A DNA stretch of 59,466 nt from a candidate division WOR-3 bacterium (GCA_026397595.1 JAPLUO010000197.1:1-59466), one strand, 5' to 3'; positions 31,893 to 57,139 are shown, counted from the stretch's first letter. Notes: generated by a model from the letters alone, not told the origin. Numbers and translations are program-made.

Positions 31893-31920
31893 GCCGATTT
31901 CCGATTGGCGATTCGGGCGA
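31893..31920. repeat. heptamer array (GCCGATT TCCGATT GGCGATT ...)
   Basis: The 7-nt period is visible by eye. It leads into the 24-bp array. Confidence 0.6.
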
Positions 31921-31969
31921 AGGCTCCGGGGAAGGCCGCGGGGAAGGGCCGGGTCAAGGTATGGGGCAG

Positions 31970-32190
31970 GAGTTGGGGGAAGAGTTGACCCAAGAGTTGG
32001 GGGAAGAGTTGACCCAAGAGTTGGGGGAAGAGTTGACCCAAGAGTTGGGGGAAGAGTTGGCCCAAGAGCTGGGGGAAGAGTCGGCCCAAGAGTTGGGGGA
32101 AGAGCTGACCCATGAGTTGGGGGAAGAGTTGGCCCAAGAGCTGGGGGAAGCGCTGGCCCAAGAGTTGGGGGAAGTCTTGGGGGAATGGGG
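31970..32190. repeat. 24-bp tandem repeat, ~8.5 units (GAGTTGGGGGAAGAGTTGACCCAA)
   Basis: Near-perfect units with an internal 12-bp sub-period (GAGTTGGGGGAA / GAGTTGACCCAA). It is open in frames on both strands, so coding status is unknown. Confidence 0.9.
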
Positions 32191-32401
32191 GAGGGGAGTT
32201 TCGGAAAGGCTGACTAGTGAATTGAGACTGCCGTAGTTAGGCGGCGGACGGGCGCGGCAGAGTTGTATCCTATCACTAAACTCCCGGCTTGGGGAGCTGG
32301 TAGCTGAATGATTCTAGCATACCGGACGTAACGCCAGCGCAGTAGATCGGTTAAGTCATTTGCGGCCGAGAGCAATTCAAGGGTAGTGGTCGCCCCCTAA
32401 G

Positions 32402-32701
32402 CAGCTTTCGAGTTAGCTTTCGAACAAGCCTTGAATGGTGCTCTGAAATGAGCTTTAAGTCCAGCTTTCAGAAGAGCTTTGTCGTGTGCTTTCACTGAAG
32501 CTATGAACTGAGCGATGGAAGAAGCGATGGCCTGAGCTTTGAGGCGAGCGATGCGCTAAGCGATTGAACGAGCTTTGGACTGAGCTTTGAGAGGTGCTTT
32601 GAAATGAGCTTTCGAGTGAGCTCTTGAATGAGCCTTCGATGGAGCTTTCCGGCGAGCTTTCCAGGGAGTTTCCGAGGGAGCTCTCAAGAGAGCTTTGGCG
32701 G
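32402..32701. repeat. 25 consecutive 12-bp units in perfect register, consensus RAGCTTTNNNNN
   Basis: For example GAGCTTTGAAAT GAGCTTTCGAGT GAGCTCTTGAAT GAGCCTTCGATG GAGCTTTCCGGC GAGCTTTCCAGG. There are no indels over 300 bp, and the region is visibly more AT-rich than its flanks. Confidence 0.85.
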
Positions 32702-32743
32702 GTCGCGGACGGTACCGCGCCGACGGGAGTATAGCGTTCGGGG

Positions 32744-32771
32744 TTGACCTGAATCGGGAATCGAATAGATT
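32744..32771 (+). promoter_or_regulatory. sigma70-like promoter (TTGACC-16-TAGATT), leaderless relative to GTG 32777
   Basis: The -10 ends 5 nt before the GTG. Confidence 0.5.
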
Positions 32772-32776
32772 GAGGA

Positions 32777-33373
32777 GTGATTGGCAGGTTTCTGTTCCGC
32801 TCGCGCGGGGTCATTGGACTGGCCGCGTTCGTCGTGGTGTTCTGGCTGGCAAGGCCGACCGTCGGGTCGTGCTCTGCCGGCCTCGCGTTCGTGCTGGCCG
32901 GGTTGGCGGTGCGGTTCTGGGCTTCGGGCTACATCGGGATTGAGGGCCGGGCGCGGGAAATCGGCGCGAGTCGGAGGATTGCGAGCGGGCCGTATCGTCT
33001 GCTGAGACATCCACTATACATCGGGAACTTCCTGTTGGTGGCGGGGATGGTTATCGCGCTGCGGCCTCCTTTGTTGCTGATGGCTGTCGTACTGGTGGGG
33101 TTTTGCGTGGAGTATGCGGTCATCGTTGTTGAGGAAGAGCGGGATTTGTCACGAGGGCGAGGTCAGAGGCTAGAAGCTAGAAGGCAGAATGCAGAAGTGC
33201 TGAGGCAAGAAGCCAAAAGCCAAGAGCCAAAAGCCAAAACTGCGAATGGCGATGGGCGAGAGGCGAATGGCGAGCAGTTCACCGTTGGACGCGCCATGTG
33301 CGAGTGGCGGACGTGGGTGGTGACTGGCGTGGCGTTCGGGCTTGCGGTTGCCAAGGCGGCAGCGAGGAGTTAG
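32777..33373 (+). CDS. isoprenylcysteine carboxyl / phospholipid methyltransferase-family membrane protein
   Basis: GPYRLLRHPLYIGNFLLVAGMVIAL motif. The C-terminal third carries a heptamer-array-encoded insert (RGQRLEARRQNAEVLRQEAKSQEPKAKTANGDGREANGE). Confidence 0.7.
   Translation: MIGRFLFRSRGVIGLAAFVVVFWLARPTVGSCSAGLAFVLAGLAVRFWASGYIGIEGRAREIGASRRIASGPYRLLRHPLYIGNFLLVAGMVIALRPPLLLMAVVLVGFCVEYAVIVVEEERDLSRGRGQRLEARRQNAEVLRQEAKSQEPKAKTANGDGREANGEQFTVGRAMCEWRTWVVTGVAFGLAVAKAAARS
33162..33273. repeat. heptamer array, ~16 units, in frame inside the ICMT-like gene
   Basis: GCTAGAA x2, GCAGAA-type x2, AGCCAAA/AGCCAAG x4 and NGGCGA-type x5, read in 7-nt steps. Confidence 0.8.
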
Positions 33374-33450
33374 GAGTTAGGTGTTAGGAGTTAGGAGACA
33401 GGAAGCAGCGGAAGACTGCTAACCGCTAACTCTTAACTGCTAACTCTCCC
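33367..33450. repeat. inverted heptamer arrays (GAGTTAG-type then CTGCTAA-type) filling a convergent intergenic spacer; possible bidirectional terminator
   Basis: Twelve units in all. The two arms are about 80% complementary over about 30 nt. The TAG stop of the ICMT-like gene (33371-33373) lies in the first unit. Confidence 0.75.
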
Positions 33451-34863
33451 TCACCGCCGGGGCAGGATTTCGAACTCGGCGGTCAGGGAGGCGGAAATGG
33501 ACGGATGGGAGACATCGCATAAATCCTTGACGCGGCTGACCAGCAGGTAGTGGCCGGGTTTCAGGTCCATGGTGTGGATTCGCTCGACCGCGACGCCGGT
33601 CCGGCCGGGACCGGTGATGGAGCGGCTCGAGACTGGCAGGATTGCTTTCTCGCGGGTTTCGCGCTCGACCAGTTCGTAGGTCGCCTGTACGTCATGGCTG
33701 CCCGCCGAGTACGTGGCGAGGTGGTAGATCTCATAGAGGACATAGAATGACTGCCCGCTTCGCACGCGGGGCACGACCAGCGGGACTGCCCGAGCCCAGT
33801 CGAGGCGGCCGAACTGCGGGCTCTGGGGCGTCGAGTCAACCAGCGAGTAGAAAAGCACGTCAGATACCGGTTGGTCGCGCCGGGAGTAGTCTATGAGGTT
33901 CAGGTTCTGAACGCGGCGGGACGCGGTCTGGCCGCCGTCGGCAATGGCCGTGACGGTTACGGTGTAGATGTCGGCAGGCAGGTTGAAAACCTCGCGGCCT
34001 ACGGCGAACTCGACCACGGTCGTGTCCGGCGGCATCGCGCAGCTTACCCATGATTCCCGGTGAGCCGGCGTGCCCTTGTCCCGGGGAGCGAGGTCAATCG
34101 CGACGTTGATGAGAGGCTGGGTCTGGGACGGGAATGCGGCCATGATCGTCCGTAGCGGAATCCCGAACGCGAGTTCGACTTCGACCGAGTCGGCGTGCTG
34201 CCCGAGCCGGCCGAGCGATACCTCTAGTCCAAGGGGCCGGGCGTCCTTTGTGATGGCGGGCGCGGAACGACCCAGGTCCACCGGTTCAAGCGACGGCATG
34301 ACAGCGCTGCGGCCGTAGCGGCTTTCGCCGACCTGTTTGTACGCGGTGCCGGTGCGGACGAAGTCGAACTGGCGACCGAGGGAGTCGTATGACCAGATTT
34401 CCGCCGGGTTGACATAAATGCGGCTGGTTTCGGTCTCTATGGCGTGCGGTTCGTATTGCTCGCGGCGGGCCGGGCCGTAGCGGATGTAGGTGCGGACCCG
34501 GTCGTCGTTCAGCAGGTCGGTCGCGCCGAAGAAGGTCCGGGCCTGAAGCGCGCGCTGGTGGTAGAAGGCAGAGGGAGAAGGGAGGAGGGAGTCGGGAGTA
34601 GGGTTCAGGCCGGGAGGAAGATTGCGCCAGAACCAGTCAAGGTATTCGGCCCGGCCGCGGGCCGTGCTCGACGATGCGTATTGCTGGGCCGCGTTCGGGG
34701 CAATCGCTGCAAGCACGAGATAGTTGAGTTTGTCGTCGTCAGAGAGCGAGTCAGCGGGGGACAACTGTCTGACCTGGCCGCAGGAGGACAGCAGGAGAAT
34801 GCAGAATGCAGATTGCAGAATGCAGATTGCAGACTGCAGACCGCGGGGTTCCGGGTTAGTCAT
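33451..34863 (-). CDS. secreted lipoprotein, possibly GWxTD-domain-like
   Basis: The N-terminus RGLQSAICILQSAFCILLLSSCG is a signal peptide plus lipobox. AEYLDWFWRNLPP...RVRTYIRYGPA is weakly reminiscent of GWxTD proteins. Confidence 0.5.
   Translation of the reverse strand: MTNPEPRGLQSAICILQSAFCILLLSSCGQVRQLSPADSLSDDDKLNYLVLAAIAPNAAQQYASSSTARGRAEYLDWFWRNLPPGLNPTPDSLLPSPSAFYHQRALQARTFFGATDLLNDDRVRTYIRYGPARREQYEPHAIETETSRIYVNPAEIWSYDSLGRQFDFVRTGTAYKQVGESRYGRSAVMPSLEPVDLGRSAPAITKDARPLGLEVSLGRLGQHADSVEVELAFGIPLRTIMAAFPSQTQPLINVAIDLAPRDKGTPAHRESWVSCAMPPDTTVVEFAVGREVFNLPADIYTVTVTAIADGGQTASRRVQNLNLIDYSRRDQPVSDVLFYSLVDSTPQSPQFGRLDWARAVPLVVPRVRSGQSFYVLYEIYHLATYSAGSHDVQATYELVERETREKAILPVSSRSITGPGRTGVAVERIHTMDLKPGHYLLVSRVKDLCDVSHPSISASLTAEFEILPRR
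34791..34849. repeat. heptamer array (GCAGAAT/GCAGATT x6) encoding the signal-peptide core
   Basis: GCAGAAT GCAGATT GCAGAAT GCAGATT GCAGACT GCAGACC at 34801-34842. Confidence 0.85.
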
Positions 34864-34881
34864 TGGGACCTGGCTATTTCC

Positions 34882-36237
34882 TTACAGCATCGGAATCTTG
34901 ACGCCCTGGGTGCGGGCGACTTCGATGGCGTCGTCGTACCCGGCGTCGGCGTGGCGGGCGATTCCGGTGCCGGGGTCGTTCAAGAGCACACGCTTCAGCC
35001 TTTCGTCCATCTCAGTCGTGCCGTCGCAGACAATGACCTGGCCCGCGTGGATAGAGTAACCGATGCCGACGCCGCCACCGTGGTGAATGGAAACCCATGA
35101 CGCGCCCGAGGCGACGTTGAGCATGGCGTTGAGCAGGGGCCAGTCGGCAATCGCGTCAGAGCCGTCTTTCATTGCTTCGGTTTCACGGTTGGGTGACGCG
35201 ACTGAGCCGGTGTCAAGGTGGTCGCGGCCGATGACTATCGGCGCGCTGATTCGCCCCTCGCGCACGGCGAGGTTGAAGGCCAACCCGGCTTTGTCGCGTT
35301 CGCCAAACCCGAGCCAGCAGATGCGGCTGGGCAGGCCCTGGAACGGTATCTCGGCGCCGGCCCTCTTTATCCAGTTGACAAGTGCGGTGTTGTTCGGGAA
35401 GAGGTCGCAGACAAGCCGGTCGGTCTCGGCGATGTCTTTCGGGTCGCCGGAGAGCGCGGCCCAGCGGAACGGCCCCTTGCCCTGGCAGAACAGCGGACGG
35501 ATGTAGGCGGGAACGAAACCGGGGTACTTCCAAGTGCCGATTGACGATTGGCGATTGGCGATTGGCGAGGTGGGGTTGCGGATTTCGGACTCGGGGAGGA
35601 AGCCGCCCTCGACTGCTTTGCCGCGCAGGTTGTTGCCGTAGTCGAACGTTACCGCGCCCATTGACTGGAGCGCAAGCATCAGGCGGACGTGTTCGGCCAT
35701 CGTGCGAAAAGACGCCTGCTTGTATGCGGCCGGGTCCTTACGGCGGAGTTCGAGCGCCTGCTCGAACGACATGCCGCTCGGCACGTAGCCGTTCAGTTCG
35801 TCATGGGCCGAGGTCTGGTCGGTGAGCAGGTCGGGCACGACTTTGCGCTCGACCAGGCGCTTAAGCAGGTCAACGATGTTGCCGCACCAGGCGAAACTGG
35901 CCGCCTGCTTATGGCTCTTCGCGTCGAGGGCCCGGTCAATAGCCTTATCAAGGTCAGGGATACTCTCGTCGAGGTAGCGGGGCTTCTTGCTGGCCAGGCG
36001 TCGGGCCACGCGGGCCGGGTCGACCTCTGCGCCGAGATAGGTCGCGCCGGCCATGGTCGCGGCCAGGGGCTGGGCGCCGCTCATGCCGCCGAGCCCGCCG
36101 GACACGACCAGCCGGCCCGCGAGGTCAGGAGTCCCGAAGTGCTTCCTGCCCGCGGCAACAAACGTCTCGTGCGTTCCCTGCAGGATACCCTGGGTGCCGA
36201 TGTATATCCACGAGCCCGCGGTCATCTGGCCGTACAT
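34882..36237 (-). CDS. hutU: urocanate hydratase, C-terminal 451 aa (gene interrupted by in-frame TAG at 36259-36261)
   Basis: [43 protein letters not shown] and [18 protein letters not shown] motifs. Confidence 0.9.
35537..35592. repeat. heptamer array (GCCGATT GACGATT GGCGATT GGCGATT ...) in frame inside hutU
   Basis: It encodes ...[16 protein letters not shown]..., an insert just before the conserved [13 protein letters not shown]. Confidence 0.8.
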
Positions 36238-36258
36238 TATGAGGCCGGCGGCTTCGAG

Positions 36259-36609
36259 CTAGTCGAAGTAGGGCTTGGTGGCCCAGTGCGGGACGAGGTT
36301 GGAGTTGGCAATCAGCACCCGCGGGGCATGGGGCCATGTGCGAAAGACCGCGACCGGCTTGCCCGACTGGACGAGCAGGGTCTCGTCGTTCTCCAGTTCC
36401 TTCAGCGTGCGGACGATGGCGTGGAAGCAGTCCCAGTTGCGGGCGGCGCGGCCGGTGCCGCCGTACACAATGAGCTGCTCGGGATTCTCGGCGACCTCGG
36501 GGTCGAGGTTGTTCATCAGCATCCGCAGGGCCGCTTCCTGGTGCCAGCCCTTGCACTTGAGGTGCGGGCCGCGCGGCGCCTTGACGGGTTGATATTGAGT
36601 CTGGTTCAT
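36259..36609 (-). CDS. hutU: urocanate hydratase, N-terminal 116 aa
   Basis: [28 protein letters not shown] and LLVQSGKPV...ANSNLVPHW motifs. It is in the same frame as 34882..36237, separated by TAG plus 7 codons. Confidence 0.9.
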
Positions 36610-36655: not shown

Positions 36656-36693
36656 TCCCGCCCGAATCCCGGAAACCGGAATACAACCGCCAC

Positions 36694-36784
36694 GTAGGAG
36701 AATAGTGAATGGAGAATTGTGAAACTCGAATCCGCCTTTCACTATTCTTAATTCACTATTTTCGCTGTGTCTTTGTGTCTTGGT
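36694..36784. repeat. intergenic palindromic heptamer array
   Basis: AATAGTG AATGGAG AATTGTG AAACTCG ... is followed by its near-complement CTTTCAC TATTCTT AATTCAC TATTTTC. The arms match at about 23 of 27 positions. Confidence 0.75.
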
Positions 36785-36858: not shown

Positions 36859-38619
36859 TTGATTCCAGTGCTGCTCCTGTGTCTGGCGGGCCAGCTTCAC
36901 ACCGGCGACACGCTTGAGGCGGTCAGGTTTGAAGGCATGCGCACGTTCAGCAGCCGAGCCCTGTCCCAACTGGTCACGGTGCGGGTCAGGCGGCCATCCA
37001 GCGAGAACCAACTCAACAACGATGCCGCGGCGCTGGAGTCGTTTTACCAAGACGAGGGATTTCACTCGGTTCGGGTCGAGAAGCAGATGACGCGGGGAAG
37101 GCGGCTGCCGGTTGTGACGTTCCACATTACCGAAGGGCCGCGCACGCGGGTGAGCGCGATTGCACTCACGGGCAACAGTACGGTCGGGACCGAGCAGTTG
37201 CTCAAGCAACTGACGGTGCGTCCGGGCCGCTTCTTTTCGCAGACCGCGCTTGACCAGAGCGTGGCGGCGCTGCGGACATACTACCTCAACTCCGGCTACC
37301 CGTTCGCGCAGGTACAAGATACGGTCACGCGCACCGACACCCTGGCCACGATTTCATTCAGTATCACCGAGGGCAGGCTGTGCCACGTGAGCGAGGTGCG
37401 GGTACGCGGTAACCGGACCGTCCGCACCAGAACCGTGCTGCGGGCCTCGGAAATCCGGCCGGGCGAGCAGTTCTCTCAGAAGCGGATGCAGGAGGCGCAA
37501 CGCCGGCTGTACGCGACCAAGCTGTTCTACCGGGTGATGTTCTTCGTCATAGCGGATAGCGGGCAGGAAACCAGGACCCGGGACCAGGGAGGACCGGACA
37601 GCGTGGCGGTCCGGTTCGACGTAGTCGAACAGGCGTACCGGGGCGTGTCCCTGGGCGCCGGGGTCGAGATTCCGCCCCGGCTGTTGGTATCGGCGGAGTG
37701 GGAGCACGACAACCTGTTCAACCGCGGCCACACGCTGGTCGTCGGCGGTGAGTTCAGCCCGACGCTTCCTTGGAGCTACCGGGTCGGGTTTGACGGTACA
37801 TACCGGGTGCCGTATCTGATTCTGACCAGGATTGACTTCCAGACTCATCCCTACTTCTCGTATGAGCGCCTGAACGACTTGATACGGCAGCGGGAGTATG
37901 GCATTGAAACCGGCATGACCCGGAGCCTTGTTCCCCAGTTCACAGTCGGCCTGACCAACCGTCTCCTGCTGCATTCCGACACTTTGTCCGGCATCACCAA
38001 TTCACTGGCGCTGAGCGGCCAGTATGATACGCGCGACGACATCTTTGACCCGGCTCAGGGCTTGTCTGTCCATGTGGTAGTCGAAGGCGCGGGCGGGCCA
38101 CTGTGGGGTGACAACGACTTCTACCGGCTGACCGGGGACGTGCGCTGGTATCAGCGGTTGGGGATAAGAGTTAGGGGTCAGGGTGCAGGGAGCGGGGATT
38201 TCGTGCTGGCAATGCGCGGCATGGCCGGGAGCGTCCGGCCCTACGGGCGCACCGTGGCAGTGCCGTACTACGAGGCGTTTACGCTCGGAGGCAGGAGTAC
38301 TCTGCGAGGGTATCCGGACCGGTCCATCGGGCCGGGCAGTTCGCCCGGGGACGAATACCGCTACGGTACGGCAGTGGTCAACGGCAACGTCGAGTTGCGC
38401 ACGCCTTACATACTGCGCTGGGTCGGGTTGGTCGGCTTCTTCGATGTCGGCGACGTGGGGTACGACTTCCGGATGCGAGTCTATGAATACGGCGCCGGGG
38501 CAGGCATACGGGTGCGGACCCCAATCGGGCCGGTCAGGCTGGACTGGGGTAAACGCCTGCGGAACCCGCCATCCGGGGACAAGGGCCGTTTCTACCTGGG
38601 GCTGCTCCATGCTTTCTAG
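36859..38619 (+). CDS. tamA: Omp85-family outer-membrane protein (TamA-like; BamA-like not excluded)
   Basis: 586 aa with a POTRA-like N-region and GGRSTLRGY. The barrel ends in ...YLGLLHAF. It lies immediately upstream of tamB, and its size fits the 3-POTRA TamA. Confidence 0.75.
   Translation: MIPVLLLCLAGQLHTGDTLEAVRFEGMRTFSSRALSQLVTVRVRRPSSENQLNNDAAALESFYQDEGFHSVRVEKQMTRGRRLPVVTFHITEGPRTRVSAIALTGNSTVGTEQLLKQLTVRPGRFFSQTALDQSVAALRTYYLNSGYPFAQVQDTVTRTDTLATISFSITEGRLCHVSEVRVRGNRTVRTRTVLRASEIRPGEQFSQKRMQEAQRRLYATKLFYRVMFFVIADSGQETRTRDQGGPDSVAVRFDVVEQAYRGVSLGAGVEIPPRLLVSAEWEHDNLFNRGHTLVVGGEFSPTLPWSYRVGFDGTYRVPYLILTRIDFQTHPYFSYERLNDLIRQREYGIETGMTRSLVPQFTVGLTNRLLLHSDTLSGITNSLALSGQYDTRDDIFDPAQGLSVHVVVEGAGGPLWGDNDFYRLTGDVRWYQRLGIRVRGQGAGSGDFVLAMRGMAGSVRPYGRTVAVPYYEAFTLGGRSTLRGYPDRSIGPGSSPGDEYRYGTAVVNGNVELRTPYILRWVGLVGFFDVGDVGYDFRMRVYEYGAGAGIRVRTPIGPVRLDWGKRLRNPPSGDKGRFYLGLLHAF
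38162..38198. repeat. short heptamer array in frame inside tamA
   Basis: ATAAGAG TTAGGGG TCAGGGT GCAGGGA GCGGGGA, encoding GIRVRGQGAGSGD. Confidence 0.6.
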
Positions 38620-41970: not shown

Positions 41971-41973
41971 CGC

Positions 41974-44100: not shown

Positions 44101-44216
44101 AGGACGAAGCCAGAAGCTAGATGCTAGAAGTCAGAAGTCCGGGCAGTCCTAACTGCTAACTTACTAACTGCTAACTTACTAACCGCTACCTTACTAACTC
44201 GCGGCGAAGCCGCGTC
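44101..44216. repeat. intergenic heptamer/15-mer array filling the priA / 44217 convergent spacer
   Basis: CAGAAGC TAGATGC TAGAAGT CAGAAGT, then (CTAACTGCTAACTTA) x3. It is flanked by the short inverted termini GTAGAGGACG / CGTCCTAC, which contain both stop codons. Confidence 0.8.
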
Positions 44217-45011: not shown

Positions 45012-45051
45012 TCAGGCGGTGAATCCCGAGACCCGAAACGGGACCGCCAGG

Positions 45052-45115
45052 ACGCAAATGGGAAGGGGAAATGGCGAAGTGAAGGTAATGAAGTCAGGGG
45101 TCAGAGACCAGGAAC
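45052..45115. repeat. intergenic heptamer array
   Basis: GGAAGGG GAAATGG CGAAGTG AAGGTAA TGAAGTC AGGGGTC AGAGACC. Confidence 0.65.
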
Positions 45116-49075: not shown

Positions 49076-49157
49076 CGGCATCGAGACGAAGCAGATGAAG
49101 AGACTTGCCGCGCCGCTCGCAATGACGGTGTTCAAGGTGCTGCTGGTGAGGTAGCCC

Positions 49158-50210
49158 GTGCCGGCACGGAAGGACGCAGAGCATCTGCCCGGGTTCCTTT
49201 TCCGGGCGGTATCGTTCGAGCGCGGCCGGCTGCGGATTCTCGACCAGACACAGTTACCGCACCGCGTCACTTACCTCTACCCGACCAAAGCGGCTGACGT
49301 AGTTGCAGTCATCAAACGGCTGGCGGTGCGCGGGGCACCGGCCATCGGCGTGGCCGCCGCGTACGGTATGGCCGTCGAGGCCGGGCGACTGCCTGACCGG
49401 AATCTAAGGAGCGGGCTTGAGCGGGCAGCGCGCATGCTGGTCGCCGCGCGACCGACTGCGGTCAACCTCAAGTGGGCTGTTGTCCGTGTCATGCAGTCCG
49501 TGTCCGTCCGTGCGATGTCGCCCGAGGAGAAGCGCCGGGCCGTGCTCGCTGAGGCTCAGCGGATTGAGACCGAGGAAGTCGAACGCTCGCTCGCGATAGC
49601 GCGACACGGTGCGAAACTGCTTCCCAAGAACGCCGAAGTCCTCACCATCTGCAACACCGGTGCGCTCGCCGCTCCTGGAATGGGCACCGCGCTCGGTGTG
49701 ATATTCCAGGCTCACATTGACGGCAAGCGGCCGCACGTGTATGCCTGCGAGACTAGACCACTGTTGCAGGGTAGCAGACTGACAACGCTCGAACTGCAAC
49801 GGGCTAGGATTCCGGTCACGCTGATTGCCGATAGCGCTGCGGCCAGCGTGATTGACCGGTGCGACGTGATGCTCGTTGGTGCCGACCGCATAGCAGCCAA
49901 CGGCGACACAGCGAACAAGGTCGGGACGCGGATGCTCGCGACACTAGCGCGCGCCGCACGCAAGCCGTTCTACGTTGTCGCGCCGTCCTCGACCTTTGAC
50001 TCCGCAACTCGGACCGGACAGCAGATTGTCGTCGAGCAAAGGGATGGGGAGGAGGTACGGGCCTTCGCCGGGTGCCGTGCCGCGCCGGCCCGGACCGTCG
50101 TATTCAACCCGGCCTTTGACGTAACTCCGGCCCGTCTCATCGCCGGCTTCATCACCGACCGCGGCATCCTCAAGCCGCCGTTCCGCAAGAACGTCAGCTC
50201 CAACCCCTGA
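49158..50210 (+). CDS. mtnA: S-methyl-5-thioribose-1-phosphate isomerase
   Basis: FERGRLRILDQTQLP, RGAPAIGVAAAYG, GADRIAANGDTANKVGT and FDVTPARLIAGFITDRG motifs. Confidence 0.88.
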   Translation: MPARKDAEHLPGFLFRAVSFERGRLRILDQTQLPHRVTYLYPTKAADVVAVIKRLAVRGAPAIGVAAAYGMAVEAGRLPDRNLRSGLERAARMLVAARPTAVNLKWAVVRVMQSVSVRAMSPEEKRRAVLAEAQRIETEEVERSLAIARHGAKLLPKNAEVLTICNTGALAAPGMGTALGVIFQAHIDGKRPHVYACETRPLLQGSRLTTLELQRARIPVTLIADSAAASVIDRCDVMLVGADRIAANGDTANKVGTRMLATLARAARKPFYVVAPSSTFDSATRTGQQIVVEQRDGEEVRAFAGCRAAPARTVVFNPAFDVTPARLIAGFITDRGILKPPFRKNVSSNP

Positions 50211-50479
50211 CTTCGGTCTCGCGTCCTGACCTGCGATGCGTCCAAGTCTGACTGCCGACATCCCATAGGAGAGCCCGTCAAGCCTGCGCAGCGTGGCTGC
50301 GACCTGTGATACGGCAACCGAGGCACCCGGGCGCATCAAGCTCTGACATCGCCTGCCCTCTCTGCCGTCCGAGGACGCGAGCTGGGCGGCGATGGTGTGG
50401 CATCTCGTATTCCCGTGGGTCGCGCGACATCGAGAGGAGGCGCGAAGCGCTTGACGATCGGCTGGAGTCGGTTGCCCAT

Positions 50480-50507
50480 TTGACACGCCGCCCGCGAGCG
50501 CTAGAAT
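50480..50507 (+). promoter_or_regulatory. sigma70-like promoter (TTGACA-16-TAGAAT), leaderless relative to ATG 50514
   Basis: The -10 ends 6 nt before the ATG. Confidence 0.55.
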
Positions 50508-50513
50508 CGGGGC

Positions 50514-51575
50514 ATGGTCAGGTCGTCCGAACCCAAGGCCACCTTGACAGACGCTAGTACTAGGCCGGCGTCATCGAGAGCCCCGATCGGAGATGCTCGA
50601 GGTAGCACTTGTGCTCTAGAGCTGCAGGTCCGTAGATACGCGTTCGTACCGCTTCTGATCTGTATGGTCCTGCGCACTGCGGGGGGCTCGCTGATAGACG
50701 AGAACAGCATCTCGCCCCAGGCTGACTCGATGCTGTCCGATACTGTGTTCACGCATCCAAACCCGTTAATGTGGGGGAGCATCCGACCGCCCAAGGGCTG
50801 GCAGACGTGGTCCTACAGCGACTACACCATGGAGCTGTCCGCACCGGGGGGCGCGAAACTCCGGATCACACGCTTGCCTATGGGTAGCTGCGATGTCGGC
50901 CAACCGCTGTCGATGCGCCGCCAGGTGGCAGAGCGGTTACGGAGGCGCTTTCCCGGGACCGTGGTCACCGTGGAGTCAACCACCGCCTTCGGCAAACCCG
51001 CGACTGCTCTGCATCTGGTTTTGCCGAGCGGAGATGTCCGCGACCAGATCAGGTATGCGGATCGGTCCGACCTGGTGACAATCGAGTACCGCGCGGACAG
51101 CTCGAACTACCACCGCCTGCTCCCGCTGGTGAAGGTCAGCCTGCTAACGCTCAACTGCGGCCGTGCGGTTCAGCGTGTGAGGTTGGCCCGTATGTACTTG
51201 GCGATGGGATGCAGCACCTGGGCGGCGGCTGAAGTCGCTCAGGGCCTACGCGATGCCCCCAGCGACAGCGAACTGCAGCAACTTGCGCGCGCCTCAAATC
51301 GGATTGACACGACTGCCACGCAGGGCGACCGCGTACCTGATAGAAGACGACCACCACTAGAGAACCTGGTGAGTGGGGTGATCGATGCGCTCATCGCACC
51401 GCTGCGCCAGTTGACGGTTTCCTGTGATCGATCGCGACGGTATGAACCCACCCAGATGCTGGGGCAGCGTTGGTCAACTCGAGGTTTCTGGTACCGCTGT
51501 GGTGTAGTGATGGGCTTCGCTCTTATTCTGCTCATCGTTGGCGGATGGGGTGTGTATCGGAGGAACCGGCGATGA
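50514..51575 (+). CDS. hypothetical protein with C-terminal TM anchor
   Basis: 353-aa ORF with its own promoter and a C-terminal helix (VVMGFALILLIVGGWGVY). No family recognised. Confidence 0.5.
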   Translation: MVRSSEPKATLTDASTRPASSRAPIGDARGSTCALELQVRRYAFVPLLICMVLRTAGGSLIDENSISPQADSMLSDTVFTHPNPLMWGSIRPPKGWQTWSYSDYTMELSAPGGAKLRITRLPMGSCDVGQPLSMRRQVAERLRRRFPGTVVTVESTTAFGKPATALHLVLPSGDVRDQIRYADRSDLVTIEYRADSSNYHRLLPLVKVSLLTLNCGRAVQRVRLARMYLAMGCSTWAAAEVAQGLRDAPSDSELQQLARASNRIDTTATQGDRVPDRRRPPLENLVSGVIDALIAPLRQLTVSCDRSRRYEPTQMLGQRWSTRGFWYRCGVVMGFALILLIVGGWGVYRRNRR

Positions 51576-51614
51576 CCATCACTGCCGGCTGCCCGCCATC
51601 GGTGCCAGCGGGGG

Positions 51615-51920
51615 GTGCAAGTCGGGACGTGGATGCTCGCGACACTCGCGCGGGCGGCACACAAGCCGTTCTACGTGGTGGCGCCGTCCTCGACCTTTGA
51701 CCTCGCGACCCGGACCGGACGGCAGATTGCGGTCGAGGAAAGGAATGGGGAAGAGGTTAGGGCATTCGCCGGCTGCCGCGCCGCGCCGGCCCCGACCGTC
51801 GTATTCAACCCGGCCTTTGACGTTACTCCGGCCCGCCTCATCACCGGCTTCATCACCGACCGCGGCATCCTCACGTCGCCGTTCCGCCAGAGCATCGCTC
51901 GGCTGTTGGCACGCGCCTAG
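51615..51920 (+). pseudogene. mtnA: duplicated 3' fragment of mtnA
   Basis: TRMLATLARAA.KPFYVVAPSSTFD...FNPAFDVTPARLI.GFITDRGIL is shared with mtnA. There are 29 mismatches and no gaps in about 270 nt aligned by eye (49920-50189 vs 51621-51890). Confidence 0.8.
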
Positions 51921-51930
51921 CGGCGGGGCA

Positions 51931-51969
51931 ACAGAAAAGACGCGGCCCGGGCAGGAATGCCCGGGCCGT
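51931..51969 (-). terminator. intrinsic (possibly bidirectional) terminator
   Basis: An 11-12 bp perfect GC stem, GCGGCCCGGGCA-ggaa-TGCCCGGGCCG. It is flanked by an A-run on the plus strand, which is a T-run for the minus-strand cyclophilin operon. Confidence 0.7.
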
Positions 51970-51985
51970 GATGATTGTCGTCAGG

Positions 51986-52693
51986 CTAGTCGGTGGTGAC
52001 GAAGACCTGTTCCATGACAACCGGTGTGAGCGGCTTGTCCGTGGGAGCGCCCGCGGTCTTCACCGTTGCGAGTTTGTCCAGCACGTCCATACCTTCCTTG
52101 AGCTGGCCGATGACCGTGTACTGGCCGTCAAGCTGGGGTGTGGGTTGGAAGCAGATGTAGAATTGGCTGCCGGATGAGCGTCTCTCCGGGTTGACATTGT
52201 CCCCGGTGCGCGCCATCGCCATCGAGCCTTTGTCGTGACGGCGCTTGATTTCCGCGGGCACGGTGTAGCCCGGCCCGCCGGTTCCGTTGCCGGACGGGTC
52301 GCCGCCCTGGATCATGAAGCCCGGGATGAGTCGGTGGAATACCAGGCCGTTGTAGAACCCCTTGATGCCGAGGTTCGCGACGTTGGTGACGTTCAAGGGC
52401 GCGTCTTTGGTGTAGAACTGGATCTTCATCGTCCCGTAGTCCTTGACCTTGATGGTCAGGTACAGGTTCTCGGGAAGTTTGGTTGCGACGAGCGTGTCTT
52501 TAAGCATACCTTTTGCCGCCGGGGGCGGGGTTACGGACTTGGCTGCAGTTGTGTCGGCCGGCGCGGCCGGCTTGATTGTGTCGGCGGCCAAGGCGGGCGG
52601 CTCAGCCGGCGGCTTGGCCACGGGCTGAGTCGGCTTGGGCGTACCGCAGCCGACAACGAGCAGCACGACCAGTATTGTCAGAAGCCACTTCAT
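51986..52693 (-). CDS. cyclophilin-type peptidyl-prolyl isomerase, lipoprotein
   Basis: Lipobox VVGCG, a Pro/Ala-rich linker, and FHRLIPGFMIQGGDPSGNGTGGPGY. Confidence 0.88.
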   Translation of the reverse strand: MKWLLTILVVLLVVGCGTPKPTQPVAKPPAEPPALAADTIKPAAPADTTAAKSVTPPPAAKGMLKDTLVATKLPENLYLTIKVKDYGTMKIQFYTKDAPLNVTNVANLGIKGFYNGLVFHRLIPGFMIQGGDPSGNGTGGPGYTVPAEIKRRHDKGSMAMARTGDNVNPERRSSGSQFYICFQPTPQLDGQYTVIGQLKEGMDVLDKLATVKTAGAPTDKPLTPVVMEQVFVTTD

Positions 52694-52708
52694 CGAAACG
52701 GACCTCCT

Positions 52709-54745
52709 TTAGTTGCTTGCATGTCCTTGCCGGGATGAACCGTGCGTCACGACGAACTTGTGCCGGGAGGCACCGGTCGCGGTCTCAAGTTCCGCCAGAT
52801 AGACACCGGGTGCGAGCCCGGCTGCCTCGGTGTCCACCGTATACTGCGTCGGTTTGCCTCCGGTCGGGTAACATTTTACCGTCCGACCCGCAATGTCAAT
52901 GATTTTCAAGTCTCGGCTGTCGGCCGGAAGCGTGACGTGCAGTACGCGGTAGGCCGGATTGGGCCATACCGATGTCGATCCGGAGGGCGGAAGACGAAAG
53001 GCGAAAGGCGAAACGGCGCCGGCAGGGGGTGAGCGGTACGACACGGCATCAAGGTCGAGGCCGGCTCTTGGGTCAGAGGGTGAGCCGGTGCTGTCACAGA
53101 CGATGCGCAGGTAGCAGGCGGAGTCGAGGCCGGCCGAGCCCAGGTCGAATGAGGCGGTGCCGCTAGCGTGGCCGATCCTGTTCCACAAACCGGTCCAGTC
53201 GTTGGCGGCGTACAGCCAGTAGCCGTCCGCGACGCTATCACCGTCAAAGACCGTAATGTCGTTGCCCGGCAGATTCCTCATTGTCCTATCGCGGCCCGCA
53301 CTGAGGCAGACATCGCCTTTCCGGCCCAGCGAGAAGTAGCGGCCGTCGGGCGCGCCCAGTGCGTAGATGGAGGTCGTGGGCATGACCTTGGTCGAGTCCC
53401 CGTTGTTCAGCCAGACCATTTCTTCGATGTAGACTTGTCCTGACGTGTCGGGCGCGAGGTCGAAATCAGCAGTCGCCCTGCCTCCGGCCGGCACGACCAC
53501 ACCGGCGACCGTCTTGGGCAGAAAACCCTGCGCGTGGGCGGTCAGCGTGTAGGTGCCGGGCTGAAGCAGGTGGTCGTAGTCGCCGAGTGCATGGTCGGTG
53601 TAGCAGTCCCAGCGCACCGGGCTGTCAACCGATATGCGGGCGAAGAGCGGCGCGCCGGTCAACGAGTCGCGGACCACGCCGCTTGCTCCCTGGCGGCAGG
53701 CGCGAATCATGCCGAGCAGTGCCCGGCGGTTGGCAACGCAAATCGAGTCTATCTGGGCCTGCTCAGATTGATGCGGCCTCTGTGTCTCAATCGTGTAGGC
53801 GAAGTTGCCGAAGAGGCCGAATCCGGCATCCTGGCACGATCCGTCCACCTCGTACCAGCCATAGCCGTTGATGGGCTCAAGCAGTGTCGTGCCCGAGCCG
53901 TAGGTCGAGTCCGCGTACTGTTGGGCCAGAGCCATGATAGAGCCGGAGTCGGGCGGGTCGGCCGGGTGGTTGTCCCAAAGGTAGTTGACATACGACGAGG
54001 CCGAGTGGTACGCGAATTCCATGCAGATGTTGTTGTCCATGCTGTGCTGCCGGATGAAGCGCGTCTCCGGCTGCGAGAATGGACTCGGGCTCCCGCCCAT
54101 TCCGCTCCAGCGATAGCCGTAGTCGCGGTTCAGGTCAACGCCTTTGGCGTTGGAACGGTCACTCGCGATGAAGCCGTCCACGTTGACAATCGGGATGACC
54201 CAGAGCTCGGTTGAGTCCACCAGGTTGTGGATTGAGGTGCTGGTGTCGTAGCTTGCCAGTACGTATTGCAGGAACGAGAGCGTGATTTCGGTCGCAATCT
54301 TCTCATCGCCGTGATGCGGGCCGAGGACCCGGAACTCGGGTTCGGCTTCTTCAGTGAGCGAGTTGTCGGTCACCCGCATCGCCAGAATCAGGCTGTCGTT
54401 GGCACTCCGGCCGATGGTGTCGAGCCGGCAGATGAGCGGGTAGGCCTGGACCAGGCTGACCATGGTGCTGCAGACTTGCGCGTAGGTCCGGTAGTCGAAC
54501 TGCGCCGAGTCGGTCCATGCCTGGTAGTCCGGGATGGTGACTATCGGTGAATAGCCGAGGGCGCGGAGCCGGACAAGGTCGGCGTCAGTGACAAGCACGC
54601 GGGCGGAGCCGTCGGCGACGCTGATGATGGTCAGGTCGTGCGGCAACTGATATACGGCAGCGTGGCTGGGGAGCTGGACTTCGGCCACGCGCCGGGCCTG
54701 CCCGGGCGCGCCGAGAAGCAGCAGGGCGGCGACGATGAGATTCAC
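52709..54745 (-). CDS. M14-family zinc carboxypeptidase with T9SS C-terminal sorting domain
   Basis: GPHHGDEKIATE (HxxE) and the M14 core. The C-terminal ~80 aa (VWPNPAYRVLHV...IIDIAGRTV...LAPGVYLAEL) resembles a type-A Por sorting domain. Confidence 0.75.
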   Translation of the reverse strand: MNLIVAALLLLGAPGQARRVAEVQLPSHAAVYQLPHDLTIISVADGSARVLVTDADLVRLRALGYSPIVTIPDYQAWTDSAQFDYRTYAQVCSTMVSLVQAYPLICRLDTIGRSANDSLILAMRVTDNSLTEEAEPEFRVLGPHHGDEKIATEITLSFLQYVLASYDTSTSIHNLVDSTELWVIPIVNVDGFIASDRSNAKGVDLNRDYGYRWSGMGGSPSPFSQPETRFIRQHSMDNNICMEFAYHSASSYVNYLWDNHPADPPDSGSIMALAQQYADSTYGSGTTLLEPINGYGWYEVDGSCQDAGFGLFGNFAYTIETQRPHQSEQAQIDSICVANRRALLGMIRACRQGASGVVRDSLTGAPLFARISVDSPVRWDCYTDHALGDYDHLLQPGTYTLTAHAQGFLPKTVAGVVVPAGGRATADFDLAPDTSGQVYIEEMVWLNNGDSTKVMPTTSIYALGAPDGRYFSLGRKGDVCLSAGRDRTMRNLPGNDITVFDGDSVADGYWLYAANDWTGLWNRIGHASGTASFDLGSAGLDSACYLRIVCDSTGSPSDPRAGLDLDAVSYRSPPAGAVSPFAFRLPPSGSTSVWPNPAYRVLHVTLPADSRDLKIIDIAGRTVKCYPTGGKPTQYTVDTEAAGLAPGVYLAELETATGASRHKFVVTHGSSRQGHASN
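52986..53020. repeat. short heptamer array in frame in the peptidase
   Basis: GACGAAA GGCGAAA GGCGAAA CGGCGCC, encoding ...SPFAFRLPP... on the minus strand just before the sorting domain. Confidence 0.6.
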
Positions 54746-54751
54746 GAGCGA

Positions 54752-57139
54752 CTAGTGTAGCAGGACCAGCTTGCTGGTCAAACTCCCTTGCGGCGTGGCG
54801 GAGCGAAGGAAGTAGGCGCCGGGAGGCAAGTCGGAAGTGGAAAGGGGAAATGGCGAAGTCGAGACCGTGAAGGACCGGACGAAGCGGCCGGAGGCATCGT
54901 ACAGGGACAACGATGAACGATGAGCGATGAACGATGAACCGGAGATGCGGACGGTCGCGCGGCCGTGGCAGGGGTTGGGGGATACGAAGAGGGAAGCGGG
55001 AGGAGGGAGGAGGGAGGAGTGGGGCTCGGCCAGTCCGACCCCGGGTGCGCGGAACAGAATGCTCGTGGAATCGGCCGGCACGTGCTTGAGCGGGTTGGCG
55101 TCGTACACGTATTGCTGGTACCAGTTCCAACTGCCGTCATCGCCCTGGATTCCGACGGTGCTGCTCGTGGCGTCGGCAGTAACATCGAGGTAGTTGAACC
55201 GGATATTGCCACTGTGTTCGAGGATGACTTGGAACGTGAGCAGGCCGGTGTCCGGCTGCGCTCGCGCAGCGCCGACCCATGTGTAGACTGCCTGTTCGCT
55301 CGTGAGGTTCTCGTAGACTTGTCCGGTGTCGCGGAGAGAGATGTCGTCCCAGAACGGCGCGATGATGTCGGTGATGTCCTCGAAGGGAAGCGGGAAATTG
55401 AGGCCGGCAATGCTGTTCGAGGTCTGGATGTAGCCGTTGGTGCATACGTGGACGCGGTCGGTCGAGTCCCCGTAGAAACGAAACTTGAACGGCAGGTGAC
55501 GGCGGGAAGTGCCCTCGTCCGGGTTCGGGTTCCAGTCGTCAATAACGGTTCCCCCGGCCGTGTCGAACCACGAGAACGCGACCGAGTCCGGTTCCTGTGA
55601 TGATTCGTAGACGTAACCGAACCCGTCCGGGTCGCTGCCCGTGGTCGTGCGCGAGCGCTGGCGGCTGGTGTCGTTGCCCGGGTTTTCGTCACCGGTGAGA
55701 CTGACAAAGGCAGTGGCGTGGAACACGGTCCGCTCCGAGGGCAGGAAGACGCCGAAGTCAACCTGTTGACTCGAGTCCGGCGCGAGTTGGAGCACGGTGT
55801 CCCGGTCGAATACCGGAGCCTGGGTGGCGGAGTCGAGAATCGTAATACGGGCAGTCGGGGTTTCGCCGGCAGCGCCGAAGTTGCGAATCAGCACCAGAAC
55901 CGGGCAGGGGTCGTCCGGGACCAACCTGCCCGAGGGCGAGACGACGCCGGCTACGCCGACATCATGCGCGAAACTCGTCATGTCGAGGTACTCAGTGGTC
56001 TGCGAGTACGGTGCGGCGCCGGGATAGCCGCCGGGGACGTAGATGCGACCGGCCGGGTCGGTGCCGGTGCCGAAGACGCTGGAGACCGGGTGCGGCTTGG
56101 CGGCGCGTTCGTGCCACAGGCCGGTGGCGGCCCCGACCGACCAGACGTCGGAGAGGGCGGAGAAGGATGAAGGCTGAAGGATGAAGGATGAAGACGGAAG
56201 GCCCAAGGCGGGATGCTGTATGCCGTATGCTGTATGCCGTATGCTCTCCGCGGCTGTGCCGTCCAGCGTGAGCCCGCCGATGACGTACAGTTCGTTGTTG
56301 ACCACGCCGCAGGCGGCGCGGCAGCGGCGGGGTCCGGGCAGAGTGTCGAGTTCGGACCAGTAGATAACCGTGGGACTTACGGGGTCGATGAGGCCCATCC
56401 ACGCCTTGTTGGTCGGACCCGAATCGGTCCAGCCGGTCGCGACCAGAATCGTGTCGCCCACGATGCCGCAGGCCATGGCGCCGAGCGGCTCAGGCAAGGG
56501 CGTTGCCGGGTACCAAGTGCTGGTCGCCGCGTCGAAGAACTTGACCGTATCGGTCGGCGGCATTGAGGGATGCCAACTGCCACCGCCCAGCGTGAAAATC
56601 AGGCTGTCGCGCCAGACCACGGTGCCGAAGTCGTACAGGCCTTCCGGCATGTTCGGGCCGACCGTCCACGTATCCGCGGCCGGGTCGTAGACTTCGACGT
56701 CGGCCAGCCCGGTGCCGAACGTCCGGCACCCGCCGAGCACATAGACCTGTCCCTTCACAGTGCACGCCTGTCCCAGCCCACGGCGCTGGGACATGGCGGC
56801 GCGCTGGCGCCACGAGTTTGGCTGCGGCGAATACTCGATGCACAGTCGTTCCATCGTGTCGGAAGGCGAACGCTGGCCGCCGATTGCATAGAGCCGAGGG
56901 CCGGAATCGGTCGAGGCGAACGCGGTCATGTGGAAGGCACGGGGACCGGGCAGCGGCGCGACTTCAAACCACTCGTTGCCGTCCGTCACCGAGCCCGCCA
57001 AGACGGTGCAATAGACCAGGACCAACGCCATCGCCAGGAAAATGGTGCGGCCCGAGTCGAGTCCGCTACATCCGCGCCGGTCCGTATTCTGCATCACAAG
57101 GTCGTGACTGAGGTTACCACTTGGTGTTGTAAGAGTCAA
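54752..57139 (-). CDS. Kelch-repeat protein with T9SS C-terminal sorting domain
   Basis: Kelch-like blades (RLYAIGG, VYVLGG, ELYVIGG) and the C-terminus LFVSPNPCHGRATVRI...LYDASGRFV...PPGAYFL. The likely true start is ATG 57094 (MQNTDRR..., signal peptide). Confidence 0.75.
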   Translation of the reverse strand: MTLTTPSGNLSHDLVMQNTDRRGCSGLDSGRTIFLAMALVLVYCTVLAGSVTDGNEWFEVAPLPGPRAFHMTAFASTDSGPRLYAIGGQRSPSDTMERLCIEYSPQPNSWRQRAAMSQRRGLGQACTVKGQVYVLGGCRTFGTGLADVEVYDPAADTWTVGPNMPEGLYDFGTVVWRDSLIFTLGGGSWHPSMPPTDTVKFFDAATSTWYPATPLPEPLGAMACGIVGDTILVATGWTDSGPTNKAWMGLIDPVSPTVIYWSELDTLPGPRRCRAACGVVNNELYVIGGLTLDGTAAESIRHTAYGIQHPALGLPSSSFILQPSSFSALSDVWSVGAATGLWHERAAKPHPVSSVFGTGTDPAGRIYVPGGYPGAAPYSQTTEYLDMTSFAHDVGVAGVVSPSGRLVPDDPCPVLVLIRNFGAAGETPTARITILDSATQAPVFDRDTVLQLAPDSSQQVDFGVFLPSERTVFHATAFVSLTGDENPGNDTSRQRSRTTTGSDPDGFGYVYESSQEPDSVAFSWFDTAGGTVIDDWNPNPDEGTSRRHLPFKFRFYGDSTDRVHVCTNGYIQTSNSIAGLNFPLPFEDITDIIAPFWDDISLRDTGQVYENLTSEQAVYTWVGAARAQPDTGLLTFQVILEHSGNIRFNYLDVTADATSSTVGIQGDDGSWNWYQQYVYDANPLKHVPADSTSILFRAPGVGLAEPHSSLLPPPASLFVSPNPCHGRATVRISGSSFIAHRSSLSLYDASGRFVRSFTVSTSPFPLSTSDLPPGAYFLRSATPQGSLTSKLVLLH
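54827..55025. repeat. three heptamer arrays in frame within the Kelch-protein sorting-domain region
   Basis: GAAGTGG AAAGGGG AAATGGC GAAGTCG; ATGAACG ATGAGCG ATGAACG ATGAACC; GGAGGGA x3. Confidence 0.75.
56151..56248. repeat. heptamer array, 14 units, in frame in the Kelch domain
   Basis: GGATGAA GGCTGAA GGATGAA GGATGAA ... TGCTGTA TGCCGTA TGCTGTA TGCCGTA, encoding HTAYGIQHPALGLPSSSFILQPSSFSAL on the minus strand. Confidence 0.85.

Follow-up and report, generated by a model that had tools for sequence, protein, structure and literature searches.

In this study, we analyzed a 59,466-nt stretch of DNA from a bacterium of candidate division WOR-3 (GCA_026397595.1 JAPLUO010000197.1:1-59466; hereafter the window), an assignment made by PriA and hutU searches, and found that its 31.9- to 56.2-kb part is studded with short tandem arrays of 7-nt units. 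These arrays are heptanucleotide simple-sequence repeats (SSRs), a known class that includes the short tandemly repeated repetitive (STRR) sequences and the GGGNATC repeats of Xanthomonas and Nostoc. What is new is a bloom of such repeats that is restricted to one clade, lies mostly in frame within conserved genes, and turns over rapidly at recurrent loops.

A strict scan (sliding autocorrelation over 21 nt, with at least 85% self-match) returned 11 arrays at period 7, 7 at period 14, and 1 at period 15 in the window, with none at periods 4 to 6 or 8 to 13, and dinucleotide-preserving shuffles of the window yielded no strict period-7 array at all. A looser scan gave 23 period-7 arrays, compared to about 2 in shuffles, with 22 of the 23 located beyond 28 kb; Tandem Repeats Finder reported about 20 period-7 rows, every one within 31.9 to 56.2 kb. 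An earlier sequence-only reading of the window had described a dispersed family of degenerate 7-nt arrays, and its period-7 signal thus stands clear of shuffled controls. The arrays that it quoted were recovered where it had placed them (GCAGAAT type at 34792-34846, CGATTGG at 35530-35572, GGAGTTA at 33359-33404, AGCCAAA and then GGCGANN at 33202-33274, and GAAGGAT with ATGCTGT at 56159-56247), as were the words that it saw recurring at distant loci (43103-43122 and 54834-54853 agree at 20/20 positions, and 45063-45080 and 54842-54859 agree at 18/18). Pfam searches likewise backed its list of hosts, namely, hutU, PriA, Omp85/TamA, a PEMT/ICMT-like methyltransferase, an M14 peptidase, a Kelch protein, a lipoprotein signal peptide, and five spacers, and the part holding the polysaccharide locus, which it had described as free of arrays, has 0 strict arrays and 1 weak array in 1-28 kb. 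The window arrays are real and are no artifact of assembly, since short-read contigs assembled independently from three sequencing runs agree with the window at 100% over 32512-35020 (which includes four array loci) and 48430-52885, and since orthologous arrays are found in separate JGI, ENA, and NCBI assemblies.

The bloom is confined to one WOR-3 sub-clade. Strict array density is 0.2 to 0.9 per kb in the window's sub-clade (loci L081-L089), while the syntenic loci of two WOR-3 outgroups, L090 (hutU 84% identical) and L091 (hutU 78% identical; complete genome CP070680.1), contain 0 strict arrays in 21.7 kb each. A survey of related metagenome-assembled genomes (MAGs), as the sequence-only reading had proposed, finds arrays throughout L081-L089 that share a period and not a sequence. 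In 305 kb of nonredundant clade sequence there were 90 arrays of period 7 and 11 of period 8, compared to at most 3 at each of periods 4 to 6 and 9 to 11; the 90 arrays have a median length of 33 nt and a maximum of 51 nt. Period 7 is therefore not the only one in the family, as had been supposed; about 10% of such clade arrays are of period 8. Outside the clade, 80 hutU loci of unrelated phyla (907 kb) gave 21 period-7 arrays versus 0 to 5 at other periods, at a density about 15-fold lower. In a Gemmatimonadaceae locus (L022), (CGGATTG)n arrays lie between genes as two inverted pairs, at 3922-4025 and 8364-8478, with the same architecture as the window's spacer hairpins described below.

By their construction, the arrays belong with known heptanucleotide repeats. 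They consist of head-to-tail 7-nt units in three or more copies (typically about 4 to 7), they exceed other short periods and shuffles, and each genome has several unit families whose copy number and sequence vary among relatives; the mainly intergenic location of that class is not found here. Cyanobacterial STRR sequences were reportedly described by Mazel in 1990, and they had been well chosen as the closest analogue in that the class is shared, although the STRR1-3 consensus units, which we take to be CCCCAGT, TTGGTCA, and CAACAGT, are absent, complements included, from the 60 canonical clade units. In many prokaryotes, heptanucleotide SSRs outnumber every other class of long SSRs, for which the proposed reason is slippage with the polymerase contacting about 7 nt (Mrazek 2007, relayed in PMC4679880 and PMC4692102). 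Examples include GGGAATC in Xanthomonas and GGGGAYT in Nostoc (Rehm 2015, PMC4692102) and TAACTGA in Beggiatoaceae, cyanobacteria, and Bacteroidetes (MacGregor 2015, PMC4679880); Lin and Kussell (2012) have nothing on heptamers. The suggestion that no standard feature class accounts for the arrays thus goes too far, given that a heptanucleotide excess in many prokaryotes, with slippage proposed, is already published and that the 80 unrelated loci show a period-7 excess of their own. The WOR-3 arrays resemble these published repeats in having tandem 7-nt units in about 4 to 6 copies, several families per genome, an excess over other periods, G/A richness, inverted pairs capable of forming stem-loops, variation among related genomes, and a patchy, lineage-specific abundance. 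They differ in that about 64% lie in open reading frames (ORFs), while in Xanthomonas 7 to 11% overlap ORFs and the proteins affected elsewhere are mostly small and hypothetical; in that conserved housekeeping genes are among their hosts; in having at least 60 unit types instead of one to three dominant ones; and in coming from an uncultured host. A replication-strand bias in orientation and same-site replacement are also documented here.

A broader class of bacterial tandem repeats of constant size and variable sequence, with units of 20 to 21 and 52 nt, was reported by Subirana and Messeguer (PMC8161180). It is similar to ours in that length is conserved and sequence is not, in its several families per genome, and in its taxon-specific abundance. 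Because their minimum unit was 10 nt, heptamer arrays would score as 14 or 21 nt, and part of their 20- to 21-nt class may in fact consist of higher-order repeats of three heptamers, as in PriA.

As noted above, most of the clade arrays (58 of 90) lie inside ORFs, at a density of 0.24 per kb of coding and 0.51 per kb of noncoding sequence. On alignment, the coding arrays are derived inserts that are tolerated in loops, linkers, and termini, because the orthologues of array-free WOR-3 relatives lack them; in this respect the sequence-only reading is supported. In hutU, about 55 WOR-3 urocanases (77 to 85% identical) have the short loop RTPG(K/R)-(I/V)GSW, and 10 to 13 additional residues at this site are confined to the relatives nearest to the window (at least 86% identical). 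The added peptides differ from one another and have a 7-aa period (PIANRQSPIAT, TRSLDPSIPRSLSS, TGPLDHLTTRPLSA, and SLAPNPSSPAPLSS). At the DNA level, the window (35530-35572, minus strand) and L087 have (CGATTGG)x4, or CCAATCG in the sense direction, a net in-frame insertion of 24 nt in a surface loop; L085 and L089 have an unrelated period-8 array, (ACTGGACC)x5, for a net gain of 30 nt; and L090 and L091 have no insert. The window's hutU also has an in-frame TAG at 36259-36261 (minus strand) where the close relative L085 has GAA (Glu). Because the rest of the gene is highly conserved, we take this to be a nonsense mutation of recent origin, a variant in the population, or an error in the consensus. 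Owing to the interruption, an exact look-up of the window's hutU fragment yielded no record.

PriA has three array sites, none of them present in L090. TGACGCA/TGAAGCG arrays (41968-42038, plus strand) cover the stop codon of TamB together with the start and N terminus of PriA; (TTCATCC)n (42422-42455, plus strand), encoding SDLHLSSFIFPPSF, is kept in clade relatives and is absent from L090; and the length-hypervariable insert at 42919-43135 (plus strand) consists of AAGNNNN heptamers arranged as 21-nt units, encoding 7-aa repeats of the KSQGESP type, followed by an inverted copy that contains the dispersed core word discussed below. Among relatives, the length of this central site varies between about 10 and 70 residues of KSxGESx units, and in L087 the PriA sites are occupied by different arrays. 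Presumably, coding arrays evolve as 21-nt units because they are translated as peptides of 7-aa period. Upstream of PriA, TamB is split at about 40885 into two ORFs (38183-40894 and 40891-41970) by a net 61-nt deletion relative to L082-L085 that shifts the frame; in relatives it is a single ORF of 1,141 to 1,165 aa, in which the segment lost from the window is flanked by two direct copies of CCGGGTG. TamB is thus, besides hutU, the second disrupted conserved gene in a 5-kb part of the window.

In the PEMT/ICMT-like gene, three abutting arrays, GCTAGAA/GCAGAAT, AGCCAAA, and GGCGANN (33159-33274, plus strand), encode a segment of about 45 aa. This is an internal insert and not, as first thought, a C-terminal tail: the array-encoded segment (45 to 75 aa) precedes a conserved C-terminal helix that keeps the frame, and L090 and L091 have 6 to 8 aa at this position. 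In L089 the insert is about 75 aa long and is built from different arrays. Omp85/TamA has a weak heptamer array in a loop of the POTRA region (37569-37591, plus strand) and a GGGNNNN-type array (38170-38199, plus strand) encoding a 10-aa barrel-loop insert that is absent from L090. In a 470-aa lipoprotein of unknown function, (GGGAGNN)n (34563-34603, minus strand) encodes the loop insert PTPDSLLPSPS, and (GCAGAAT)n (34792-34846, minus strand) encodes the hydrophobic region of the signal peptide, GLQSAICILQSAFCILLLSSC. The M14 peptidase has (GGCGAAA)n in its linker (52986-53017, minus strand), directly before a type IX secretion system (T9SS) sorting domain. In the Kelch propeller protein, the core word (54828-54859), (AACGATG)n, and (GAGGGAG)n lie within or just before the T9SS C-terminal domain (54828-55025, minus strand), and (GAAGGAT)n and (ATGCTGT)n encode a segment of about 30 aa (56159-56247, minus strand). 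Units with stop codons on both strands (GGAGTTA, GAAGCTA, CTAACTG, and GAGAATA) were found in spacers only. A period coprime with 3 inside ORFs had been thought to defy explanation, but it requires no special mechanism, because selection that retains only stop-free arrays of in-frame net length is sufficient.

The same hutU loop has been used elsewhere. In five Bacteroidota (Chitinophagaceae and relatives), hutU has heptamer-array inserts of 18 to 32 aa at this site, mostly inverted purine/pyrimidine pairs (L026, 6595-6708; L051, 6595-6714; L054, 6700-6813; L055, 6595-6750; and L063, 6595-6750). The units of L051, GAAAGTG/GAAAATG, are similar to the WOR-3 core word. We regard these inserts as convergent, having arisen independently of those in WOR-3.

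Comparison of the window to the MAG CAZQZR01 (loci L085 and L086; L089 matches it at 99.97 to 100%), which is syntenic with 32.7-54.3 kb of the window at 87 to 92% nucleotide identity, revealed sites of several kinds. An unrelated array has been swapped in at the hutU loop, at the M14 linker (GGCGAAA in the window and an unrelated GGGGNNN run at the same site in the relative), and in the PriA-TPR264 spacer, where L086 has a different hairpin. The hairpin block of the hutU-Omp85 spacer is absent from that locus in L085; the 157-nt difference is bounded by a 5-nt GTCAA repeat, which fits a microhomology deletion as well as it fits a target-site duplication. Copy number or module composition is altered in the PriA central region and the PEMT insert, and several other arrays have diverged. 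Conversely, the signal-peptide array (34792-34846; 100% identical in L085 and L089), the Kelch core word (54828-54859; 100% conserved in L133), and the hairpin at 33359-33447 are 93 to 100% kept. Near-identical genomes from independent samples (L087 versus L088, and L089 versus L085/L086) showed no array differences. Turnover therefore occurs at the species-to-genus scale, since genomes that are 99.97 to 100% identical share the same arrays and those of 88 to 92% identity differ in array unit, number of copies, or presence, and extreme hypermutability of the arrays is ruled out.

The 90 clade arrays comprise 60 distinct units, most of them found at a single locus. There is no sub-motif common to all units, only a purine bias (73% purine on one strand) and frequent GA/AG. 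This diversity fits an origin in situ better than it fits one propagating family. Orientation is not random: the purine-rich strand is the G-rich strand of the locus, as judged by GC skew, in 19/24 loci (p = 0.007; Spearman rho 0.58, p = 8e-5), and 13 of 16 nonorthologous loci agree in a hand count from the per-locus table. Purine-rich and gene strands show no association (12/24 loci), and the orientation is no by-product of composition, as it is opposed to the local AT skew.

Where arrays occur as inverted pairs, the resulting hairpins are more stable than shuffled sequences (fold z of -3.3 to -6.6). Between convergent genes at 33359-33452, (GGAGTTA)n, which supplies the PEMT stop codon, and its inverted partner (TAACTCN)n form a hairpin (dG of -36.6/-35.5 kcal/mol; z of -3.3/-4.3) that is kept in L085. 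The hutU-Omp85 spacer (36661-36772) has a short CCCGGAA-type array and a near-perfect hairpin of about 30 bp built of GAGAATN/GTGAATN heptamers (z of -6.6). The PriA insert at 42919-43135 also folds (z of -3.5), as does the spacer between the convergent PriA and TPR264 genes, which holds (GAAGCTA)n and (CTAACTG)n (44105-44210; minus-strand dG of -48.2 kcal/mol; z of -3.7).

A minority of the sequences are dispersed. The 19-mer core word AAGTGGAAAGGGGAAATGG, made of three different heptamers, occurs in 14, 13, 3, and 2 copies in four clade MAGs and as about ten singletons among some 185,000 other genomes; viral contigs searched with it gave no match. Outside a common 28-nt core its copies have unrelated flanks; one of them, GGGGAAATGGCGAAGT, lies in a spacer of the window (45045-45100). 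By inspection, no terminal inverted repeats or target-site duplications were evident around 33 aligned core copies. In CAZQZR01, the word also forms part of a composite repeat of about 100 nt (L097, L100, L107, and L127) that has a sharp 5' boundary, unrelated upstream flanks, and the order (CGCCAAGA)x2, core word, and then GTGATGTCATTCCGAGCG...GAGTCGAGGAATCTCTC. Finally, the GAGAATN/GTGAATN hairpin occupies the hutU-Omp85 spacer in the window and the PriA-TPR264 spacer in L086, with its loop inverted. The earlier idea of a propagating repeat family thus holds for part of the material: a multi-heptamer word is present at 13 to 14 or more loci per related genome, while most units are unique.

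Taken together, we think it moderately likely that slippage and template switching, tied to replication and with a register of about 7 nt, give rise to the arrays, which are filtered by selection and supplemented by some ectopic copying. Strand slippage associated with replication, if it had such a preferred register, would seed arrays and turn them over in place, and template switching would produce inverted copies and hence hairpins. Selection would then act as a filter: within genes, only stop-free, frame-keeping arrays in loops, linkers, signal peptides, and termini would survive, to be translated as low-complexity peptides of 7-aa period, and spacers would be the one place where arrays with stop codons on both strands could last. 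Some multi-unit words, a minority of which AAGTGGA-AAGGGGA-AATGGCR is the prime example, would be copied to many loci, either because arrays recombine ectopically with one another or because small dispersed repeats carry the words along. What the arrays have in common, after all, is their period (7, with 8 in about 10%) and not their sequence.

Several observations go beyond what slippage alone explains. It gives no reason for a preferred register of 7. Unrelated 7-mer and 8-mer arrays share the hutU loop in proteins that are 94% identical, and GGCGAAA and GGGGNNN alternate at the M14 linker. Two MAGs have the 19-nt three-heptamer word at 14 and 13 loci, respectively, where its flanks are unrelated; the composite repeat of about 100 nt that contains it has a sharp 5' boundary; and two close relatives differ in the locus at which the hairpin element stands. 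Within strains the arrays showed no length polymorphism, so the rate of slippage is not extreme. The neighboring 28 kb is free of arrays, and likewise in a relative. Moreover, the replication strand was inferred from the GC skew of short loci and not from a mapped origin.

The main rival, which we regard as possible but rather unlikely, is that the arrays derive from very small nonautonomous mobile elements, comparable to the small dispersed repeats (SDR) of Nostoc, MITEs (miniature transposable elements with inverted repeats), Rickettsia palindromic elements (RPEs), or repetitive extragenic palindromic (REP) sequences and REPINs. Units the size of a hairpin or a word would insert, perhaps into single-stranded DNA at the fork, and be kept if in frame, with slippage only embellishing them. 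The 14, 13, 3, and 2 copies of the core word with unrelated flanks, the composite repeat with its sharp 5' end, the relocated hairpin with its inverted loop, the substitution of unrelated arrays for one another at one site, and the GAAAGTG/GAAAATG-like units in a Bacteroidota hutU insert all speak for such elements, and a replication-strand bias would likewise be expected from HUH-type single-strand transposition. As with MITEs and RPEs, insertion is in frame, into conserved ORFs, and at structurally permissive positions; RPEs are a precedent for in-frame insertion of palindromic repeats into conserved genes (PMC10969869). A conserved multicopy sequence with unrelated flanks is seen for the 28-nt core and the composite repeat and not for most arrays, whose units are unique. 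Against such elements, period is conserved instead of sequence (60 units in 90 arrays, mostly single locus). Nor are there evident terminal inverted repeats or target-site duplications around the core copies, a transposase in the window, or viral matches to the core word; the right arms of the hairpins are degenerate, the arrays grade into their flanks, and many core copies must be old, because they are orthologous between MAGs.

Nostoc SDRs, as reportedly described by Elhai et al. in Genome Research in 2008 (cited in PMC3116915 and PMC2884548), are dispersed families of 21 to 27 nt that have a secondary structure in common and lie within heptamer repeats and conserved sequences. On that description, the WOR-3 material would be similar in its dispersed words of about 20 to 30 nt, seemingly mobile without an obvious transposase and tied to tandem heptamers; it differs in having one clear word family, that of the 28-nt core. 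RPEs are about 100 to 150 bp long and conserved in sequence and form about ten families, each encoding a conserved peptide (Ogata 2000, reviewed in PMC10969869). They are likewise hairpin-capable, lineage restricted, and found in frame in unrelated conserved genes at positions compatible with the fold, whereas the WOR-3 units are of 7 nt, in arrays of 25 to 50 nt (up to about 200 nt when compound) that are mostly unique and have no visible element boundaries. REP/REPIN sequences are extragenic palindromes of conserved sequence, bear a GTAG or CGTC tag, and are mobilized by REP-associated tyrosine transposases (RAYTs) (PMC3116915, PMC3733652). Short imperfect palindromes, many copies, a possible strand bias, and a frequent location between convergent genes are common to both, but the WOR-3 arrays are mostly intragenic and direct and have no common tag. 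They are not extragenic, tagged palindromes of 20 to 40 nt: GTAG precedes nothing but the hairpin at 36690-36772, and it is missing before the L086 copy of that hairpin. No RAYT (Y1 HUH) transposase was present among the Pfam-identified genes of the window.

One speculative and, to our minds, doubtful extension is that the sub-clade acquired or unleashed an active, fork-coupled process that seeds both 7-nt duplications and small heptamer-built hairpin elements chromosome-wide. A change in a component of the replisome or of repair may be responsible, or else a mobile element that is tiny and has no recognizable transposase.

It is improbable, in our judgment, that the arrays are kept chiefly for a function, whether as sites for a protein that binds 7 nt per subunit (of the cold-shock/OB-fold or nucleoid type), terminators, mRNA-stabilizing hairpins, G-quadruplex regulators, or adaptive, hypervariable loops of surface proteins. 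Hairpins between convergent genes (33360-33452 and 44100-44222) that are far more stable than shuffles would suit such roles, as would the full conservation of 34792-34846 and 54828-54859 while their flanks diverge, the presence of four or more G3 tracts in several arrays (e.g., 34570-34603 and 54986-55025), and the envelope or secreted nature of Omp85 and the M14 and Kelch/T9SS proteins; roles for G-quadruplexes and binding by Csp or S1 have been proposed in print (PMC4692102, PMC4679880). However, similar arrays occur in cytoplasmic enzymes (hutU and PriA), signal peptides, and spacers, the units are too diverse for a specific binder, and most orthologous arrays have been turned over or replaced. 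The array hairpins lack U-tracts, a terminator and promoter consensus scan of 31.5-46 kb showed no enrichment (12 terminators versus 10.6 expected), and Rfam gave no match in the whole window at gathering thresholds. A purely functional reading is weak because arrays occur in these contexts alike, without terminator enrichment or an Rfam match.

The contrast between the window's two parts deserves comment. In the left 28 kb lie polA and a polysaccharide locus of the Wzx/Wzy/Wzz type. Clade relatives of polA reach 80 to 90% identity, the order polA-epimerase-Wzz-Wzx-Wzy is kept in relatives, and the corresponding region of one relative (L218) has 0 arrays in 18.5 kb; because this relative is array-free there too, we consider this regional heterogeneity real and conserved. 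Neither GC skew nor intergenic space differs between the two halves, and the array-free part is on the same replication strand. Recent horizontal acquisition, considered as the cause, has some support from the mildly atypical composition of the central 8-24 kb and from the lack of close relatives of Wzx, but the position of the locus is conserved and the relative's region is free of arrays as well, so exchange of polysaccharide genes accounts only partly for the array-poor left half. A chimeric join at the TPR repeats was also considered; it is not supported by the independent contigs and the synteny of relatives, which largely answer the chimeric-assembly caveat raised at the outset, although no independent contig spans the junction itself. 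That the arrays, or the juxtaposition of array-free and array-rich DNA, result from faulty assembly or binning is very improbable indeed. In favor of it, TPR genes with similar 120-nt repeats flank the array-rich block, independent contigs break inside the repeats, no relative is syntenic across 30-32.7 kb, and two conserved window genes are disrupted; against it, independent Logan contigs match the arrays at 100%, orthologous arrays exist in JGI, ENA, and NCBI assemblies, both window halves are present in one run (ERR15302223), and polA has its clade relatives with the same downstream synteny and an equally array-free polA region.

The array-rich side of the window contains Pfam-identified genes for a TPR protein, the PEMT/ICMT-like methyltransferase, the 470-aa lipoprotein, hutU, Omp85/TamA, TamB, and PriA and, further on, EF-G, MtnA, cyclophilin, and the M14 peptidase and Kelch protein, both with T9SS sorting domains. 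Two TPR_12 genes (30213-31548 and 58697-59466), with 120-nt (40-aa) repeats of about 85% identity, bracket the block, and independent short-read contigs end inside both. Tandem Repeats Finder and the loose scan place a further heptamer array of the (TTGCCGA/CGATTGG) type downstream of the TPR gene (31891-31915). Beyond it, a 24-nt repeat (31970-32174; 8.5 copies, 91% identity) lies in a possible 117-aa ORF encoding ELGEELTQ nine times, and 32400-32700 consists of about 25 units of 12 nt, in each of which the heptamer GAGCTTT is constant and the other 5 bases vary; they are not syntenic in relatives and fit a minus-strand ORF with 4-aa repeats of the SSxE type. The C terminus of MtnA (IF-2B family) is duplicated over 285 nt at 88% identity (49916-50200 and 51618-51900), leaving a fragment ORF of 95 aa about 1.4 kb downstream of the intact gene.

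Bacteria have been known to carry tandem heptamers since 1990 and to have them in excess over other repeat lengths since 2007. This WOR-3 sub-clade amounts to a natural experiment, with dozens of orthologous sites showing gain, replacement, and change in copy number, and because array-rich and array-free sisters share gene order, the genetic change that started the bloom could be traced by gene content. The tracking of array orientation with replication-strand composition offers a mechanistic clue. As this case shows, conserved proteins can gain a quantitatively important number of insertions from heptamer repeats, which bears on protein evolution, on the annotation of genes in MAGs, and on how low-complexity inserts are read in alignments. 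Were a fork-coupled process indeed at work, it would continually rewrite essential proteins in their surface loops, linkers, and signal peptides, and the same process would extend more widely in the FCB (Fibrobacteres-Chlorobi-Bacteroidetes) superphylum, as the inserts in the hutU loop of Bacteroidota suggest.

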